This document shows, one piece after another, positions 604 to 8,441 of a DNA stretch of 8,441 bases. The stretch lies in the UHGV virus genome UHGV-0193111. One strand, given 5' to 3'. Each line of letters opens with the position of its first letter. Positions within the stretch are counted from its first letter, which is position 1. A program made the position numbers and the translations under genes. The stretch is from a virus. The notes under the pieces are model-generated. The model saw nothing but the letters and a program-made list of their open reading frames with translations. It ran no database searches and was not told the DNA's origin.

Positions 604-777
604 TGTCAGTTATCATCTTCGGTTACGGTTATCGGCAGAACGCCCTGCCGCTGACAAGAGCTTATTTGCCTGACCAATCTACTCCACATGATAGATAACT
701 ATCATTTATAACATTTCATTGATTAGTCTTTATTTTTCACTGTGTTACAAATAACAACTCTGTCAAAAACAGCGAAA

Positions 778-1767: not shown

Positions 1768-1920
1768 CCCGTTACGGGGCGGCGACCTCGCGGTTTTTCG
1801 CTATTTATGAGCTTTTTCATGGGGGGGTGGTGGTTTTGTTGCTTGCTCTATCTCCATGAATAAAAAGGGAAAGATAACACCAACACACCAACCTGAAACC
1901 TTGACCAAGTTGGGATATTG
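1768..1920 (+). other. cos site 1: lambda-type cosN (cohesive-end sequence GGGCGGCGACCT at 1777-1788) plus a diverged cosB-like leader with tandem ACACCAAC repeat (1877-1892), directly upstream of terS
   Basis: 1768-1812 cccgttacggggcggcgacctcgcggtttttcgctatttatga is near-identical to the phage lambda left end and cosN junction as I recall it (GGGCGGCGACCTCGCGGGTTTTCGCTATTTATGA). Same position and orientation relative to the Nu1-like gene as in lambda. Confidence 0.8.
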
Positions 1921-2463
1921 ATGAAATCGCACCTGATGAACAAAAAAACCATGGCGCAAAGCTGCCGGGTAAGTGCTACAGCATTCGACAAGTGGGGAGT
2001 GACTCCCGTTGAACGTAAAGGCCGTGAGGCGTTTTATGATGTTGCCAGCGTGATAGACAATAGGGTTAACAATGCAATTAGCCAGCTTACAAACGACAAA
2101 GGCGAGATTGATGATGATGAACTCTTACGAGTCAGGATCAGATTACTGACAGCACAGGCGGAGGCGCAGGAACTTAAAAACGAGCGCGATCGCGGTGACG
2201 TGATTGATACAGAGTTTTGCATGTACGCGCTTTCAAAACTGGCGAGTCAGATTTCATCAATCATGGACAGCCTCCCGCTTACTATGCAAAGGAGCTTCCC
2301 ACACATTACCCCCGCTATGCTGGATGGGCTTAAAAGGGAAGTGGTTAAAGCCTGTAATGCCAGTGCCAGAGTTGCCGACAACCTCCCACAGATACTGGCT
2401 GATTACCTGAACGAAACAACCGGAAACGTACCGGAAAAGTTGCTACAGAAGAAAGGCGAGTAA
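1921..2463 (+). CDS. terS: Terminase small subunit, lambda Nu1-like
   Basis: Product aligns along most of its length with lambda Nu1 as I recall it (YDVASVI vs YDSAAVI; RLLTAQAEAQELKNERD vs RLTRAQADAQELKNARD; FCMYALSKLASQISSIMDSLPLTMQRSFP vs FCTFVLSRIAGEIASILDGLPLSVQRRFP; LKREVVKACN vs LKRDIIKAMN). ORF track starts at TTG 1918. First ATG is 1921; ATG 1936 (MNKK...) matches the Nu1 N-terminus MEVNKK best. Weak RBS for either. Confidence 0.85.
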   Translation: MKSHLMNKKTMAQSCRVSATAFDKWGVTPVERKGREAFYDVASVIDNRVNNAISQLTNDKGEIDDDELLRVRIRLLTAQAEAQELKNERDRGDVIDTEFCMYALSKLASQISSIMDSLPLTMQRSFPHITPAMLDGLKREVVKACNASARVADNLPQILADYLNETTGNVPEKLLQKKGE

Positions 2464-3142: not shown

Positions 3143-3478
3143 TTATCGGGCCAGCGGCTGAACGGATACGCCGGAACCCGCAAAGGCGGCGCATTTTTTC
3201 GCATCGGTGTCGACGCTCTCAGGCCAGTTAACGGCGGCAATATTGAATATCCCCGTCTTGTAACACTGTGCTGATTTCTGCTTTGACGTGTCCACAGGAT
3301 ACGAAGTCAGATAAACAGCCTTGCCAGATTCCTGACCATCCCACGGCTTAAACTCGCCATTGTCCGCCAGCATCAGCGGGGTAAATTCCTGAATAACGCC
3401 AGCATCAGCGGCAAAATGTACCAGCGTCGTTGATACCTGCTGACTGCCTGCAAATAACTCAATGTATGGAGTGTTCAT
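3143..3478 (-). CDS. Head decoration protein, lambda gpD-like
   Basis: Product shares blocks with lambda gpD as I recall it (TPLML, WDG, YK-G-F, WPE, KK-AFAG, S-S-V) and has similar length (111 aa from ATG 3478; ORF track uses GTG 3487, 114 aa). Stop of the capsid gene lies 2 nt upstream of the GTG. Confidence 0.8.
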   Translation of the reverse strand: MNTPYIELFAGSQQVSTTLVHFAADAGVIQEFTPLMLADNGEFKPWDGQESGKAVYLTSYPVDTSKQKSAQCYKTGIFNIAAVNWPESVDTDAKKCAAFAGSGVSVQPLAR

Positions 3479-3489
3479 AGAATCCACCG

Positions 3490-4545
3490 TTAACCAATTT
3501 TGACGGTAACAAATTTGCGAATATCTGCCGGAACAGGCTGCGGTGCGCTGTGTGTCTGCACGTACTCAATCGCCGGATCGCCGTCTTCAATCCAGTTTTT
3601 CGGGTAAAACATGTTTTGCGTTGCGCCCGTTCTTACCGCTTCCTGTTCCATAATCGCACCATAGGCCACCAGCCCTTTATTGTTGGTGTTGCCCAGGACC
3701 AGCAAATCAGGCTCAAGGAAATATTTTTCTGTGCCGTCGCTGTCAGTGTATTTGCCGGAATAGACGATAAGGGCCAGATCACCAAGATAGCCTTTAAAGC
3801 TCACCACTTCTCCCAGGTTTTTACATGCCAGCTCTGCGGCGGATTCTGAACCACGGGAGAGATCGTACAGTTCACGGAATTTTTTAAAGCTGCGTAACAT
3901 GCGCCATACATCAACGCCCATAATCATGACGTTTGCGGGGCAACCTGCCTGATCTGCGTATAGCTCAATGTCATAGATTGGGTCGTGTATGTCTTTGTCC
4001 TGCTCTGACCATTTTTTACCGTCGGCCTGCTCTATGATGTTTTTTTCCGGTATCTTCCAGTCGATTTCATAGCGTTCTATGCCTTCGCCCTCAATGATGT
4101 TTTTTCCGGTCGTTATCGCATTCACCGCCATCCATTCCACGCGCGCTTTAATGGCGTTTATCTGGCGGCGCATGTTGCCAGTAATCAGGCGCATACGGCG
4201 GTAGGTAGGGTCGTTAAGCTGTGCCGGATCTTCTCCAGCCATGCGCATTATTGTTTTTAATGGATCGATTTCGTGTTTTGGCTTCATGTAGCCAGGGCGA
4301 ATAATGCTGGTTTCGTACCCTTTATCGCGCTGAACCTGGCTACCAACCATAGGCGAACAAAACGCCGACATAGTGACTTCTTCAATATCCAGGTTATCTA
4401 ACATGATGTCCTGTGTGTTGAATGTCGCCACGTTCGGGAAAAACAGCGCGGTAAACAGCGGACTGAATTTAAATTCCGCAATATCCTCGCGATTCAGGTA
4501 CGCGAAAAGCTGGTTAGTGTTAAGTGCCATTGCTTTGACTGCCAT
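3490..4545 (-). CDS. Major capsid protein, lambda gpE family
   Basis: 351-aa product shares many conserved blocks with lambda gpE as I recall it (FKF-PLF; PGY-KPKHE; DP-YRR-R; WS-RDK--DP-YDIE-YA; RSFK; GYLGD-A-VYSG-Y; LGNT--GL--YG-I; YPKNW--GDPA). ATG at 4545-4543 with GGGGGTGA RBS; start overlaps the stop of the upstream ORF (TAATG). Confidence 0.9.
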   Translation of the reverse strand: MAVKAMALNTNQLFAYLNREDIAEFKFSPLFTALFFPNVATFNTQDIMLDNLDIEEVTMSAFCSPMVGSQVQRDKGYETSIIRPGYMKPKHEIDPLKTIMRMAGEDPAQLNDPTYRRMRLITGNMRRQINAIKARVEWMAVNAITTGKNIIEGEGIERYEIDWKIPEKNIIEQADGKKWSEQDKDIHDPIYDIELYADQAGCPANVMIMGVDVWRMLRSFKKFRELYDLSRGSESAAELACKNLGEVVSFKGYLGDLALIVYSGKYTDSDGTEKYFLEPDLLVLGNTNNKGLVAYGAIMEQEAVRTGATQNMFYPKNWIEDGDPAIEYVQTHSAPQPVPADIRKFVTVKIG

Positions 4546-4751
4546 TATTCACCCCCATAATTTTTATGCATCCCAAGCGCCGCAAGTAAATAAGAGCGTA
4601 CAAGTGAACCTATCGACGGCTCCGGCGTCATCAGCGGATCCAGTCCAGCCGCCACGCCAGCCTCATAGTTTTTTTTGTGGCGCTGCTTGAGCACCTCCAC
4701 GATTTCGGGGCTTATGTACACCGAAACACCGCCTTTTTTCTCTTCTGCCAT
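4545..4751 (-). CDS. Hypothetical small protein, 68 aa, translationally coupled to the major capsid gene
   Basis: ATG at 4751 with AGAGGA RBS; stop overlaps the capsid gene start. First gene of the operon downstream of a palindromic promoter region. No family recognised (does not resemble lambda gpW despite equal length). Confidence 0.6.
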   Translation of the reverse strand: MAEEKKGGVSVYISPEIVEVLKQRHKKNYEAGVAAGLDPLMTPEPSIGSLVRSYLLAALGMHKNYGGE

Positions 4752-4779
4752 AGTCAGAAATTCCTCTTTGACTTAAAAA

Positions 4780-4818
4780 ATCACAACTGGATGTTCATCC
4801 AGTTATGATTATAATCAT
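4780..4818 (-). promoter_or_regulatory. Candidate promoter/operator of the capsid operon: inverted repeat AACTGGATG-n2-CATCCAGTT (4780-4799) and 14-bp perfect palindrome ATGATTATAATCAT (4805-4818) containing a consensus TATAAT
   Basis: Read directly from the sequence, 30-70 bp upstream of the 68-aa ORF start. No convincing -35 found, so promoter assignment is tentative. Confidence 0.4.
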
Positions 4819-4912
4819 GATTGCATTTTGCGCAATAAAATTGAGTTGTGTTGCAAATTATGAAATGATTTACAGCAACAGTAGTCACCATGCTGTTAAC
4901 CTCGTAAGCAAA

Positions 4913-4952
4913 AGCCCGATAAGCTTCCTCCTGTACTTATCGGGCTTTTTTT
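4913..4952 (+). terminator. Strong hairpin terminator (11-bp perfect stem AGCCCGATAAG/CTTATCGGGCT, then T7 on the plus strand); may also act on minus-strand transcripts (U4 on that side)
   Basis: Read directly from the sequence. No annotated plus-strand gene ends here, so it may insulate the two operons or terminate a small plus-strand RNA. Confidence 0.5.
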
Positions 4953-4958
4953 GGGTAC

Positions 4959-4980
4959 AAAAAGCCGGATTTTCTCCGGC
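4959..4980 (-). terminator. Rho-independent terminator after ssb (stem GCCGGA/TCCGGC, loop TTTTC, U5 on minus-strand transcript)
   Basis: Hairpin 4964-4980 with A5 at 4959-4963 on the plus strand, 9 bp downstream of the ssb stop; near-identical to the terminator at 2687-2710. Confidence 0.55.
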
Positions 4981-4988
4981 CTGTGCGT

Positions 4989-5399
4989 TCAGAACGGAAT
5001 ATCATCACCGTAGGGGTCATCGTCTCCCGCTGGTGGCTGATTACCCTGTGCGCCTGTGGTTTTGCGTCTGTTCCCGCCAGGACGTGCCGCACGGGCACTG
5101 ATTACGCTGTCTGCAATAACCTGATAACCCTGCCGCGTTTCCCCGTTCTGTCCGGTCCACTGGCTTATCTGCATCACGCCAGATATGCTGGCAACGTCGC
5201 CTTTTTGATGTTTAGCCAGGAAGTCGGCCTGCTTACCAAATGCCATCACCGATAGCCATAACGTAGCCGTTCCGTCATCTGCCTGGCTGCACGGAAGGGG
5301 GACCGCCATACGCGCCAGCGTCATCGGTGTGCCCTTGCTGGTCTGTTTTACCTGCGGGTCGTCCACCAGCCGCCCGTAAGCTGCTATCTGTGCTGTCAT
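4989..5399 (-). CDS. ssb: Single-stranded DNA-binding protein
   Basis: 136-aa product with an SSB-like OB-fold core (FGK...KGD...ISG...W...GE-R) and a Gly/Pro-rich linker ending in the acidic tail DDDPYGDDIPF, the hallmark SSB C-terminal motif. Start ATG overlaps the upstream ORF stop (ATGA). Confidence 0.85.
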   Translation of the reverse strand: MTAQIAAYGRLVDDPQVKQTSKGTPMTLARMAVPLPCSQADDGTATLWLSVMAFGKQADFLAKHQKGDVASISGVMQISQWTGQNGETRQGYQVIADSVISARAARPGGNRRKTTGAQGNQPPAGDDDPYGDDIPF

Positions 5400-5647
5400 G
5401 CTGTCTGCTCTCCGGTTTTAACGTTGATGGTTGTTACCTGTTCCGCTTCGGCAATCTCCCGCTCTGTCAGCGTGGCAAAATTTGCCGCCGCCGTGGTCAT
5501 GAATGCGCTTATCAGGTCGGGATGTTCCTTCGCGTATCCTTCCCGCGTGTGGCGGTCTATCGTTCTGATTGCCACCTTTAAGGTGTGCTCAGTCATGTCT
5601 AACGCTTTATATTTTGGCTCTGTTCTGTCTCTGCGTGTTCTGGTCAT
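5396..5647 (-). CDS. Hypothetical protein, 83 aa, translationally coupled to ssb
   Basis: ATG at 5647 with GAGGTGG RBS (ORF track starts 4 codons earlier at TTG 5659); stop overlaps the ssb start. No family recognised. Confidence 0.55.
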   Translation of the reverse strand: MTRTRRDRTEPKYKALDMTEHTLKVAIRTIDRHTREGYAKEHPDLISAFMTTAAANFATLTEREIAEAEQVTTINVKTGEQTA

Positions 5648-5660
5648 TTGCCACCTCAAT

Positions 5661-5999
5661 TTATATATATATATAGAAACATGTGCGGGTTATGCGGGTT
5701 ATTGGGTTATCTTAGCGTGCTAACCATTTTTTATCCTTTTATATCAGTATTTTGCAAAACACCCTGTTTATTATTTGCTCACCACGTAACCCGCAAAACG
5801 CTCAAAATAACCCGCAAACGGGGTTTTTTCTGCGGGTTACGCATGACTGTCCGGTGTTACTTCAGTTATTCGCCTGCGGGTTATAATCGTGCTTTTGCGG
5901 GTTATAAATGCCCTTTTGCGGGTTACGTGCGGGTTATTGGTTTCCTTTATATTCATGCACTTAATACACTTATACACAGGATAACCCGCATAACCCGCA
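5661..5999. repeat. Putative replication origin: iteron array of 11 perfect TGCGGGTTA 9-mers (plus strand at 5684, 5693, 5831, 5875, 5896, 5917, 5928; inverted at 5787, 5808, 5982, 5991) with AT-rich tracts including (TA)n at 5661-5676
   Basis: Repeats read directly from the sequence; several pairs spaced 21 bp (5787/5808; 5875/5896/5917), tandem pairs at both edges in opposite orientation. Located immediately downstream of the primase/helicase gene, as is typical for Pri-Rep plus ori modules of phage-inducible islands. Confidence 0.75.
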
Positions 6000-6021
6000 A
6001 TTTTTTTCCTCACACAGGGGA

Positions 6022-8145
6022 TTAATCTTCATCATCAGGCTGGAACATCAGCACGTAAAAAACATGCTGCTTACCCCCAATCTTGCCCAGCGCCTTTTTT
6101 TTGTATCGGCGATCGCTTCCCTTCTCCAGCATTCCGGCAGCATCCAGGGCACGCGCAAAATGCGCCGGATTAAATCCCTTCGCTATCTCACTATCAAACA
6201 CGTGCGGGAACGTGTAATAGCGCATCTCGTCATCTTCGTTGCGAATGCTCCCTTTTCTGTATCCGGCAAGCTCTTTAATCGGTAAATCACGCTCATCTGT
6301 ATTGGGGTACGGAAGGTAGCGGCTAAACCCAAACGACGACAAAAACGCCTCAGCCTGTTCAACCATCTGTTTAAATTCCCTGTTACCCGTGCCGAACTCC
6401 TTCACCCAGGCATTAAAGTTATGCTGTATCGCGTCGCAGCATTCCTGCACGACCCAGCCAGTTACATGACCGGAAAGCACAAGCGCGGCCTCCAGTATGG
6501 CGAAACGTTCACCCACGCGGTGGACCTGCTCGCCGTAACTCTCCGGTATCAGGTTGCGCCACCGTTCGCGGCATTCCCTTACCGTGTCCTTTGCCTCCTG
6601 CTGGTGGCCTGCCAGCCATTTAACCCACTCACGACCCGCCGCCCCGTGATTTGCTGTCCAGGCATCCTTTAACGCGTCAGCATGTTCCTTACCGTTGCTG
6701 TATTCGTGAAATTTCGTGGCTTTTTCCATCGGAACGTTAAGCAGTCGGACAAGCTGCCCCGCCTTAACTTTTATCCCCTCACTTTTGAGGAATGTCTCAA
6801 CGTCCATTTCTCCGGTGCTGATTGCCACCGTTCGCCAGTGTTTGATCTCCCTGTTGCCGCCATCCTTCGCCCCCTGCAATTTCCCTGAACCGTTAAACAG
6901 CGTATAAGCAGACGTTGACACTTCCCGCGCATTTCCGGCCTGGCCTATCTCATCCAGTGGTAAAAGCCCGTCATTATGGGCCTCGGCCTCATTGGCAATA
7001 CCTAACGCCGTGCCGTACCAGGTCAGCCGCTGCGCGTCCGGCTCTCCCCATAAACTTGATGCGATGTTCTGCGTGGTGGTCTTACCTGCCGATGACTGTT
7101 CGAAAAGATGCACCCCGAAGCCGTCAGCACCCACAAGGCCAATTAAAGGCGCTGCCAGTGACGTTGCCACACCCAGCATCATTGAGGCATTACCGCCAGC
7201 CAGCCGCGCCACGCTGTCGCGCCAGCCATCCGCCGTGCCAGCCACGGAATAACCGTTAATCGCGGCGCTTTTTCCGGTAAACAGGATCGGTTTTTCAGAT
7301 TCACCAATGATCGAACCGTCCGGCATGATGTACGCGCCAAAATGCCAGCCCGTTGTTGTGCTTAACTGCCATTCCTCATGGCTTCCGCTTAACTGCATCC
7401 AGTCCGCCAGGATTGCCCTGTATTTGCCGTTGGTTGTCACGTTCAGCCCGTGATCTTTAAGTAACCGCCAGCCGTCACGGTCGCCGATACCACCACACGG
7501 GATCGCCATTGTGATGACTTCATGGTTTGCGGTTTTTTTCCAGCGCATCACGCGGTAATGCTCTTTACCGATCGTCCCCGTTCCCAGTAGTTCAAGCGGA
7601 GAACATAACCACGTCTCAGGCCGGATAATTTCGCCTGACTGCTTATCCACTTTGGGCGTTACCCAGAAAACACCATCGGCGCGACTTTCAACGCGTGGCT
7701 TTAATTCGTCATCGCTATGACTTCCGGTATCTTTTTTCTTTACCGGAAGCTCAATAACCAGACCATCAGAAAGATTCTGCCGCTCACGGGCCAGATATTC
7801 GCGCCAGTTCTCCACCTTCTGAACGTGCATTCCATCAGGGTAAAAATTTGCATCCTGTACGCCTGCCGCCGCCAGCTTCTGACCAATCGCCTTGATCATT
7901 ACTGGCTCAAGATGTCCGGCCCTGAATATGCGTACTGATTTTCGGCCTTCCGGCACAATTTGCAGCTTATCCAGTTCGGCAAGTTGTTGCTCTCCAAGCC
8001 AGACAGGAGGCACGTTATCGCCAGCCAGTCGCCCGTCCTGTTCCTGCCACTGCTTCGCATGTGCCCACGCATCACTACCCGCAAAAATGATGACTTCCGT
8101 CATTTTGTCACGTGGCTGGTGTTTTAAATTTGGCGCTTTTTTCAT
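6022..8145 (-). CDS. Replication initiator of primase/helicase type (P-loop NTPase; Pri-Rep-like); exact family not resolved
   Basis: 707 aa from ATG 8145 with GGAGAG RBS (ORF track uses GTG 8160, 712 aa). Contains a Walker A-like SSAGKTT and a Walker B-like LLPLDE motif. Large size and position directly upstream of an iteron array. Start overlaps the stop of the upstream ORF (ATGA). Confidence 0.8.
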   Translation of the reverse strand: MKKAPNLKHQPRDKMTEVIIFAGSDAWAHAKQWQEQDGRLAGDNVPPVWLGEQQLAELDKLQIVPEGRKSVRIFRAGHLEPVMIKAIGQKLAAAGVQDANFYPDGMHVQKVENWREYLARERQNLSDGLVIELPVKKKDTGSHSDDELKPRVESRADGVFWVTPKVDKQSGEIIRPETWLCSPLELLGTGTIGKEHYRVMRWKKTANHEVITMAIPCGGIGDRDGWRLLKDHGLNVTTNGKYRAILADWMQLSGSHEEWQLSTTTGWHFGAYIMPDGSIIGESEKPILFTGKSAAINGYSVAGTADGWRDSVARLAGGNASMMLGVATSLAAPLIGLVGADGFGVHLFEQSSAGKTTTQNIASSLWGEPDAQRLTWYGTALGIANEAEAHNDGLLPLDEIGQAGNAREVSTSAYTLFNGSGKLQGAKDGGNREIKHWRTVAISTGEMDVETFLKSEGIKVKAGQLVRLLNVPMEKATKFHEYSNGKEHADALKDAWTANHGAAGREWVKWLAGHQQEAKDTVRECRERWRNLIPESYGEQVHRVGERFAILEAALVLSGHVTGWVVQECCDAIQHNFNAWVKEFGTGNREFKQMVEQAEAFLSSFGFSRYLPYPNTDERDLPIKELAGYRKGSIRNEDDEMRYYTFPHVFDSEIAKGFNPAHFARALDAAGMLEKGSDRRYKKKALGKIGGKQHVFYVLMFQPDDED

Positions 8146-8441
8146 TTCTGCTCTCTCCACGCGGCAATCATGTTTTTTAGTTCCTGTAGTTTTTTATCAA
8201 CATCCATACATGACACATGGTTATTTCTGGAAAGCGGGATTTCCCGCCTGAATCTGCTAATAAAGATCTCCACGTTCAGCGAACTAAGAAATGAATAGCC
8301 ATCACGGATAAAATACACACGGTCAAACATCAGTTCTTTTACCGTTACTCTGTTACCGTTCTTATCCAGATAAATAGCGCCGGGGATAATTTGGGGGTGT
8401 GCATAACCGCTGGCAGTCAAGCCAGATAAATATGTTCTCAT
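8142..8441 (-). CDS. Hypothetical protein, at least 99 aa; may continue beyond the window end
   Basis: Open frame runs to the window edge (an ATG happens to sit at 8441-8439); stop overlaps the primase start. No family recognised; not AlpA-like. Confidence 0.45.
   Translation of the reverse strand: MRTYLSGLTASGYAHPQIIPGAIYLDKNGNRVTVKELMFDRVYFIRDGYSFLSSLNVEIFISRFRREIPLSRNNHVSCMDVDKKLQELKNMIAAWREQK

Follow-up and report, generated by a model that had tools for sequence, protein, structure and literature searches.

We analysed a stretch of 8,441 nucleotides from the virus genome UHGV-0193111 (hereafter the window), which carries, directly 3′ of a gene for a DUF927-family initiator (Rep), an array of 9-bp repeats (iterons) of the sequence TGCGGGTTA. 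This array very probably serves a phage-inducible chromosomal island (PICI) of the E. coli chromosome as its origin of vegetative replication and is very probably bound by the adjacent Rep, because it lies 3′ of rep, because the repeat word changes with the initiator allele and tracks the C-terminal part of Rep, because the repeats are under selection and because Rep is homologous to the Rep of Staphylococcus aureus pathogenicity islands (SaPIs). An initial annotation, made from the DNA letters, had proposed that the array is an origin and the binding array of the adjacent initiator, and all of the comparative tests that we ran support this proposal.

The window contains 11 perfect copies of TGCGGGTTA, every one of them inside 5684-5999 and in two orientations.

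Starts 5684, 5693, 5831, 5875, 5896, 5917 and 5928, plus strand: TGCGGGTTA iterons, exact matches
Starts 5787, 5808, 5982 and 5991, minus strand: TGCGGGTTA iterons, exact matches
5662-5676: (TA)7 tract at the module B end of the array, the least stable duplex in the region
6001-6007: T7 run

When up to one mismatch was allowed, the window gave 12 matches, compared with 2.17 expected and a largest count of 6 among 200 dinucleotide-preserving shuffles. Start-to-start steps run, in order, 9, 94, 21, 23, 44, 21, 21, 11, 54 and 9 bp. Tandem pairs with a 9-bp step stand at both edges of the array and point inward; internal steps of 21 bp separate 5787 from 5808 and 5875, 5896 and 5917 from one another, and a single 11-bp step separates 5917 from 5928. 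Within the 94-bp and 54-bp gaps lie AT-rich spacers at 5711-5786 (66% AT) and 5937-5981 (69% AT), and a decayed twelfth copy, TTGGGTTAT, was found at 5702-5710, where a diverged E. coli version reads GCGGGTTA. On one side the array is bounded by the stop codon of the 712-aa rep gene (6022) and on the other by the start of an 83-aa open reading frame (ORF) that precedes ssb, with the first iteron beginning 23 nt past the rep stop codon. The recount and the shuffles thus bear out the initial annotation in its eleven exact 9-mers in both orientations within about 320 bp; the oppositely oriented tandem pairs at the edges and the internal 21-bp spacing that it described were recovered as well, and its (TA)n and T-rich flanks correspond to the (TA)7 tract and the T7 run, the TA tract being part of a conserved layout. 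It had also suggested a database search for the array, which detected it in 195 of 5426 complete E. coli genomes, including O157:H7, and in all of them on the chromosome. A lone copy with one mismatch, TGCGGGTTC, at 3174-3182 on the minus strand lies inside the head-decoration gene and is probably there by chance.

The initial annotation had treated the array as one unit. We found instead that it consists of two separable modules, which lie about 8 kb apart in some relatives.

5875-5999, minus strand: module A, the rep-proximal core, with 2 tandem and 4 inverted iterons around a spacer
5840-5874, no strand: linker of 35 bp, 49% AT and without an iteron, variable among E. coli versions
5657-5839, minus strand: module B, distal, with 2 (+1 decayed) and 2 (+1) iterons around a 66% AT spacer

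Module A is made up of the tandem copies 5991-5999 and 5982-5990, the 45-bp spacer 5937-5981 and inverted copies at 5928, 5917, 5896 and 5875 (steps of 11, 21 and 21). In module B, the copy at 5831 is followed by inverted copies at 5808 and 5787, the spacer 5711-5786 (76-85 bp), the decayed copy, the pair at 5693 and 5684, and (TA)7. In both modules, two sets of iterons therefore surround AT-rich DNA, as expected of a PICI origin.

The word that makes up the array differs with the initiator beside it. When we compared the window with the E. coli PICIs L002, L003, L004, L005 and L007, the initiator slot was found to hold three unrelated helicase families between conserved DUF4222 and ssb flanks, and the repeat word downstream differed with the family that occupied the slot. 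The DUF927/MCM-like initiator of the window is followed by 11 copies of TGCGGGTTA, a D5/SF3-type Pri-Rep (EcCICFT073 and EcCIIHE3034) by CTGTCTACC/GGTAGAYA, and a RepA/AAA_25-type initiator (EcCI042) by AAGTGAGG. We then scored an array, defined as at least four exact copies of an 8-mer at most 450 bp past the rep stop codon, in 80 DUF927-relative loci from Enterobacterales, taken with flanks of ±4 kb that are too short to reveal a distant second cluster; 77 had enough downstream DNA to be usable. In 72 of the 77, as in the window, an array of the locus's own 8-9 bp word lies directly 3′ of rep, just past the stop codon. Grouping of these words gave 18 related classes, for example ACGGGTTA, GTGGGTTA, GTTGGTTCA, GTCGGTTCA, GTTGTCTCA and TGGGATAAG. 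The layout is shared: two to three copies stand in tandem at about +25 to +45, inverted copies follow across an AT-rich spacer at about +97, +108, +129 and +150, and a second set comes after these. The prevailing spacings are 9, 21 and 11 bp, the pattern of orientations and the positions are conserved, and the module A unit is present at about +25 to +150 nt past the stop codon in all 72 array-bearing relatives. The number of copies is bimodal, with modes at 6 (16 loci) and 12 (26 of 73 loci), which would fit one and two Rep hexamers, respectively.

Among these relatives, the word class was best predicted by the C-terminal part of Rep. Identity within residues 610-712 predicted it with an area under the curve of 0.95, compared with 0.78 for the DUF927 core and 0.69 for the N terminus, all of these figures being inflated by shared ancestry. 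Pairs of Rep proteins with cores up to 100% identical carry different words, and word class accounts for a fraction of 0.50 of the residue variation in the core but of 0.60-0.66 in the 70 residues at the C terminus. This association suggests that the signal for iteron specificity sits in the last ~100 residues of Rep. The 9-mers themselves are conserved: across four E. coli versions of the array, with identities down to 85%, only 1 of 99 columns varies within iterons, compared with 75 of 279 elsewhere (Fisher p=3e-10), a difference that supports strong purifying selection on the repeats. One relative from Yersinia pekkanenii (L032) has three separate GTTGGTTCA arrays within 7.5 kb, at 1158-1425, 5740-6007 and 6921-7218, and an unusually long rep match (4001-6873); it may be a rearranged or tandem element.

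Rep itself resembles initiators that work as helicases.

6022-8160, minus strand: rep, a 712-aa DUF927 initiator/helicase (Pfam DUF927)
6025-6333, about residues 610-712 of Rep: putative iteron-binding C-terminal domain

The Pfam DUF927 match covers residues 173-440 (E=1.6e-48). Searched alone against PDB sequences, Rep matched 8tch (SaPIbov1 Rep) at E=1.3e-12 and 5dgk (Cch of the staphylococcal cassette chromosome SCCmec) at E=0.003; a profile of 28 Rep sequences matched the same two entries at E=2.8e-21 and E=1.1e-9, and its alignment to Cch extends to profile position 559 of 571, that is, through the C-terminal domain. The top four Foldseek matches were 5dgk/8tch, the sole significant fold matches, 8tch being named as the SaPIbov1 replication initiator. 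These data support the assignment of Rep as a putative helicase-initiator homologous to the MCM-like, self-loading helicases SaPI Rep and SCCmec Cch, and the C-terminal domain is a putative winged helix. The gene had been called a primase/helicase in the initial annotation. The helicase half of that name stands on the homology to 8tch and 5dgk, and the primase half does not: most DUF927 relatives are 900-950 aa long (~930) and have a Zn-ribbon and Toprim primase ahead of DUF927, but residues 1-139 of the window Rep (nt 7744-8160) matched no Pfam family and had no BLASTP similarity to this Zn-ribbon/Toprim module. AlphaFold predicted an alpha/beta domain for residues 1-139 (predicted local distance difference test score (pLDDT) 82-89), for which Foldseek returned no significant PDB fold match, and the full-length model (pLDDT 52) was confident for residues 10-135 only. 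Residues 1-139 stand in the place that the primase module takes in longer relatives.

Two published systems bear most closely on the array. In Gram-negative PICIs, the origin lies directly 3′ of the initiator gene, where two iteron sets flank an AT-rich region, and a pri-rep-ori segment of EcCICFT073 maintains a temperature-sensitive plasmid only when rep and ori are both intact (Fillol-Salom et al. 2018, ISME J, PMC6092414). Origins of the EcCICFT073 type share with the window the island family and its backbone, the slot 3′ of the initiator, the inward-pointing tandem pairs at the edges and the AT-rich DNA. They differ in that the EcCICFT073 initiator is a D5_N/DUF5906/Pox_D5 (SF3) protein with its CTGTCTACC/GGTAGAYA word, whereas the window pairs DUF927 with TGCGGGTTA. 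The DUF927/TGCGGGTTA allele may be the fourth allele of the 2018 paper, EcCIED1a (CAR08829), in its Fig. 2a. The other system is that of the SaPIs, in which Rep is a self-loading hexameric helicase that binds 6-12 iterons just downstream of rep through its C-terminal winged helix and melts the central AT-rich region without ATP (PMC9371898). SaPIs (SaPIbov1 Rep, 8tch; Rep1/PriRep5) and Cch resemble the window in having a homologous initiator, 6-12 downstream iterons and opposed iteron sets around AT-rich DNA, and the SaPIs and the window alike have no separate helicase loader. In the window, at least two opposed iterons stand on each side of the AT-rich region, and the total of 11 exact copies and one decayed copy falls within the SaPI range. 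SaPI iterons are 5-6 nt long, however, whereas those of the window are 9 nt long and its host is Gram-negative; the window also differs in having no detectable primase fused to or beside rep, where the upstream gene is DUF4222, and in its double-module array, which is split in some relatives.

An O157:H7 island at roxA-phoQ (strain PA20) shares this Rep and array: its DUF927 rep is the same, and its 11 copies of TGCGGGTTA form an array with 98.2% identity to that of the window. This capsid-forming PICI matches the published description of EcCIEDL933, which has been reported to replicate on induction (bioRxiv 10.1101/2022.09.08.507074). The O157:H7 island carries a full HK97-type capsid and terminase module and occupies a different attachment (att) site, whereas the window element belongs to the classical PICIs, its capsid genes being lambda E/D-like and its terS Nu1-like. 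Iteron plasmids of the pPS10, RK2, R6K and F type are alike in combining a cognate Rep with repeated sites beside an AT-rich unwinding region. Their repeats are direct, of ~17-22 bp and in one orientation, and, besides DnaA boxes, they have a Rep of the WH1-WH2 type, which together with DnaA recruits DnaB of the host. The window differs from them in that its 9-mers stand in both orientations, its Rep is itself a predicted helicase and it has no conserved DnaA box. By sequence, the window system belongs with the SaPI Rep/ori family, set in the published origin slot of Gram-negative PICIs, and is neither a P4 origin nor a classical iteron-plasmid origin.

From the repeats, their layout and conservation, their association with Rep type and the homology of Rep, we infer a scheme for Rep binding, melting, helicase loading and priming. 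Induction of the island by a helper phage would lead to production of Rep, whose C-terminal domain, probably a winged helix, would bind the TGCGGGTTA iterons. The oppositely oriented iteron sets that bracket the AT-rich spacer would position Rep rings around it; the spacer would then melt, the Rep helicase would load itself, and the island single-stranded DNA-binding protein, encoded just downstream, would coat the single strands. Priming would presumably be supplied by the host, which is probable because this Rep allele has no recognisable primase domain. Module A would serve as the canonical core origin and module B as a second Rep-binding unit, which might complete a double origin or act as an accessory site like crr of P4.

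The role of module B is best considered in the light of elements in which the two modules are separated. When viral contigs were searched for the tandem pair, 62 stretches were recovered, some with the exact 11-copy layout and others with a single cluster of 5-6 copies, and in seven contigs two clusters lay 8-10 kb apart with one rep adjoining just one of them. Capsid-forming PICIs with the same Rep and iteron have split modules (L155, L112, L109, L116, L118, L119, L132 and L140), and in split capsid-forming PICIs overall, which also include L235 and L253, a single rep accompanies two modules of one specificity that are 7-10 kb from each other.

5740-5894 and 14002-14126 of L155: split iteron modules
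474-606 and 9639-9772 of L112: split iteron modules

In L155 (E. coli M15, NZ_CP185789.1, with the modules at 3431641-3431795 and 3439903-3440027 of that sequence), genes and modules follow one another as int, alpA, DUF4222, DUF927, module A, ssb, ProQ, HK97 capsid, protease, portal, HNH, TerS, TerL, module B and the att end, and the distal cluster aligns to 5657-5816 of the window, an alignment that spans the two inverted copies as well as the spacer, the tandem copies and the TA tract. In the split elements, the distal module lies beyond terL, near the att end, with no second rep beside it, and module A remains next to rep wherever module B is displaced. Among viral contigs of the GTTGGTTCA class, 2 of 120 loci are split. 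In the complete classical island L001, all TGCGGGTTA copies lie in one cluster. The split arrangement is unmentioned in PMC6092414 and in bioRxiv 10.1101/2022.09.08.507074, both of which were checked for iterons. Taken alone, L089 and L090 would suggest that the island can do without module B and the TA tract, a reading that is wrong, as the same element (L155) has its module B 8 kb away.

It is possible, though we hold it to be the less probable view, that module A alone is the origin and that module B is a separate cis-acting Rep-binding site that just happens to adjoin it in the window, whether a crr-like enhancer looped to the origin by Rep, a handcuffing site for copy control or a second origin. 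Such a division would fit the capsid-forming PICIs that share this Rep and iteron and have a homologue of module B 8-10 kb away from module A, the two split cases in the GTTGGTTCA class, the match of module A to the minimal layout of 16 relatives (two to three tandem copies, an AT-rich spacer and three inverted copies) and the example of P4, in which iterons cluster at two sites, crr directly 3′ of the alpha gene and a distant ori. However, module B is itself shaped like a minimal origin, with inverted sets around an AT-rich spacer, and could therefore be the second half of one origin; moreover, contiguous arrays of ~12 copies are the commonest form (26 of 73 loci, and 39 of 120 in the GTTGGTTCA class). 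More tentatively still, the modules might be two separable Rep-loading pads of about six iterons each, adjacent in the window but placed at opposite ends of the late operon in some capsid-forming PICIs with this Rep, acting as two origins or as an origin and a crr-like looping partner. P4 also provides another comparison, as it shares with the window an initiator-helicase, short iterons in both orientations and a crr cluster directly 3′ of the initiator gene, and its two sites, ori and crr, resemble modules A and B where these are split, as in some capsid-forming PICIs. PICIs and P4 have int-, alpA/vis- and icd-like genes in common, and P4 was the comparison that the initial annotation drew. 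The sequence tests nevertheless refute the idea of a P4-family origin or crr with a P4 alpha-like primase-helicase bound to it, and we give this idea almost no weight. P4 alpha and the window Rep are unrelated in BLASTP (best E=0.72), Rep being DUF927/MCM-like and not D5/SF3; the genes present are those of a PICI; TGCGGGTTA is absent from P4; and the only TGTTCACC in the window, at 336, lies inside clpS. The window thus has no alpha-type initiator, 0 copies of TGTTCACC in its array and no two separated iteron regions, its modules being contiguous. The initial annotation had been right that the 9-mer is unlike the P4 type I iteron, which it gave correctly as TGTTCACC.

In a transcriptional reading, the array would mainly be an operator at which Rep or another island protein governs read-through from rep into ssb and the late genes, with replication beginning elsewhere. 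The operon around the array runs in one direction, no terminator or promoter was predicted between rep and ssb, and the conserved TA tract lies just upstream of the ribosome-binding site of the next gene in the window. Iterons also act in autoregulation in many plasmids. Yet we consider a mainly regulatory array very improbable. In split elements, module B and the TA tract stand at the island end, where there is no downstream gene in that direction, and the complete island L001 has no second iteron cluster. The equivalent region of EcCICFT073 is required for rep-dependent plasmid maintenance (PMC6092414), and the layout is that of SaPI origins, where Rep melts the AT-rich spacer (PMC9371898). 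Repetitiveness is the sole point in favour of a chance cluster or of another class of repeat, such as an array of clustered regularly interspaced short palindromic repeats (CRISPR), a repetitive extragenic palindromic element or a packaging site. This too is refuted, and its probability is negligible: no shuffle came near the observed count, the two orientations and uneven spacers are unlike CRISPR, no Rfam family matched, and both the selection on the repeats and the association between word and Rep argue for function.

Several observations weigh against assigning the array to replication by Rep. The region contains three zones of low duplex stability, none of which is singled out for melting, and no primase domain was detected to account for priming. 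In the C-terminal domain, the match to HTH_56, the helix-turn-helix domain of Cch, at residues 637-706 is weak, as its E value of 6e-4 misses the Pfam cut-off and just 2 of 28 relatives show it, and both AlphaFold models are unusable at the C terminus (pLDDT <50; 47 for the C-terminal part alone). The association of word class with the C terminus is partly confounded by shared ancestry, a confounding that the contrast between domains of the same proteins lessens. Finally, a scan of 5350-6150 for promoters and terminators found no sigma-70 promoter and no terminator on the minus strand, with hairpins on the plus strand only, so Rep binding could also affect read-through into ssb, and the array may have a regulatory role alongside that of an origin.

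Other sequence elements recur around the arrays.

5944-5956: TGATTTATAAGG-like motif, a diverged copy in the first AT-rich spacer, common to different word classes
6007-6021, minus strand: CACAYGYGAGG-like element with an A-run, between the stop codon and the first iteron pair

Past the last tandem iterons, full arrays of all word classes have a tract like TTTTG-TTATATATA-AAAAA. Of 38 non-redundant full arrays, 26 have a (TA)n of at least 6 nt at this place, and AT content there is 0.72, compared with 0.56 in a control segment. Because this tract recurs after the last iterons of relatives' full arrays, we regard the (TA)7 of the window as a conserved terminal element. Its length varies among nearly identical E. 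coli islands, from 14 nt in the window to 12 nt in L001 and 10 nt in O157:H7. By eye, the CACAYGYGAGG-like element appears to stand ahead of the first iteron pair in the inspected relatives, which are of all word classes. The segment 6007-6021 was flagged as a plus-strand hairpin without a real T-tail and is not the rep terminator, because rep lies on the minus strand. One DnaA box, TTATACACA at 5970-5978, fits the relaxed consensus but was rejected as chance, as it is unconserved in relatives; a DnaA-like box occurs in 9 of 73 loci, in none of them within the spacer. A scan for further origin motifs found no IHF core, no Dam sites and no oriC 13-mers.

The remaining genes of the window place the array in an island of known type.

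8142-8441, minus strand: DUF4222 gene, overlapping the rep start (Pfam; the same position in PICIs of every initiator allele)
5396-5647, minus strand: 83-aa ORF, the first gene downstream of the origin (annotated in RefSeq in the homologous island L001)
4989-5399, minus strand: ssb, the island single-stranded DNA-binding protein (Pfam SSB, E=3.5e-15)
3490-4545, minus strand: gene for a lambda E-like capsid protein
3143-3487, minus strand: gene for a lambda D-like decoration protein
1918-2463, plus strand: terS, a Nu1-like small terminase
283-603: clpS
695-705, minus strand: att core ATGATAGTTAT, 11 bp, an exact match that marks the clpS-side island end

The gene order is DUF4222, rep, the array, a hypothetical gene, ssb, the E-like capsid gene, the D-like decoration gene and the Nu1-like terS. 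The window is collinear with the PICIs EcCIIHE3034, EcCICFT073 and EcCI042 and with the complete 12-kb island L001, which runs from int and alpA through terS and has an icd-like gene; the end of the window falls short of int and alpA. The att core is listed for EcCIIHE3034 and EcCI18098 at the cspD-clpS site (PMC6092414, Table S1). Because of this att core and of the collinearity with EcCIIHE3034, EcCICFT073 and L001, we assign the element to the classical Gram-negative PICIs integrated at cspD-clpS. The 83-aa ORF has an ATG at 5645-5647 and a Shine-Dalgarno sequence, GAGGTGG, at 5650-5656, and a Pfam search with it gave no match; a scan against Rfam gave zero matches across the window. A 940-bp segment that carries terS (1746-2685) is inverted relative to L001 and EcCIIHE3034, and terS therefore converges on the remaining island operon. 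The segment is edged by 77-nt inverted repeats (1746-1822 and 2609-2685) that are 81% complementary, and it could be an invertible segment or the result of a one-off recombination.

An origin of iterons placed after rep has been published for both Gram-positive and Gram-negative PICIs, so the array described here is nothing new in kind; the split modules and the series of iteron specificities are the sole parts that might be new to a specialist. As phage satellites, PICIs are widespread and carry virulence and defence genes from one bacterium to another, and their replication enables high-frequency transfer. The DUF927 initiator allele now has TGCGGGTTA as its assigned, putative cognate origin word, within one layout that recurs across 18 specificities and with a specificity signal that appears to lie in the last ~100 residues of Rep. 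The natural splits of ~8 kb between the halves of the origin offer a means to ask what each half does. If the modules are indeed separable loading pads, a P4-like arrangement would have been reached with an unrelated initiator of the SaPI/MCM type, and arrays at the copy-number modes of 6 and 12 would load a single and a double hexamer of Rep, respectively. Together with their matching C-terminal domains, the 18 words would then form a natural series for studying how this family of initiators reads DNA.

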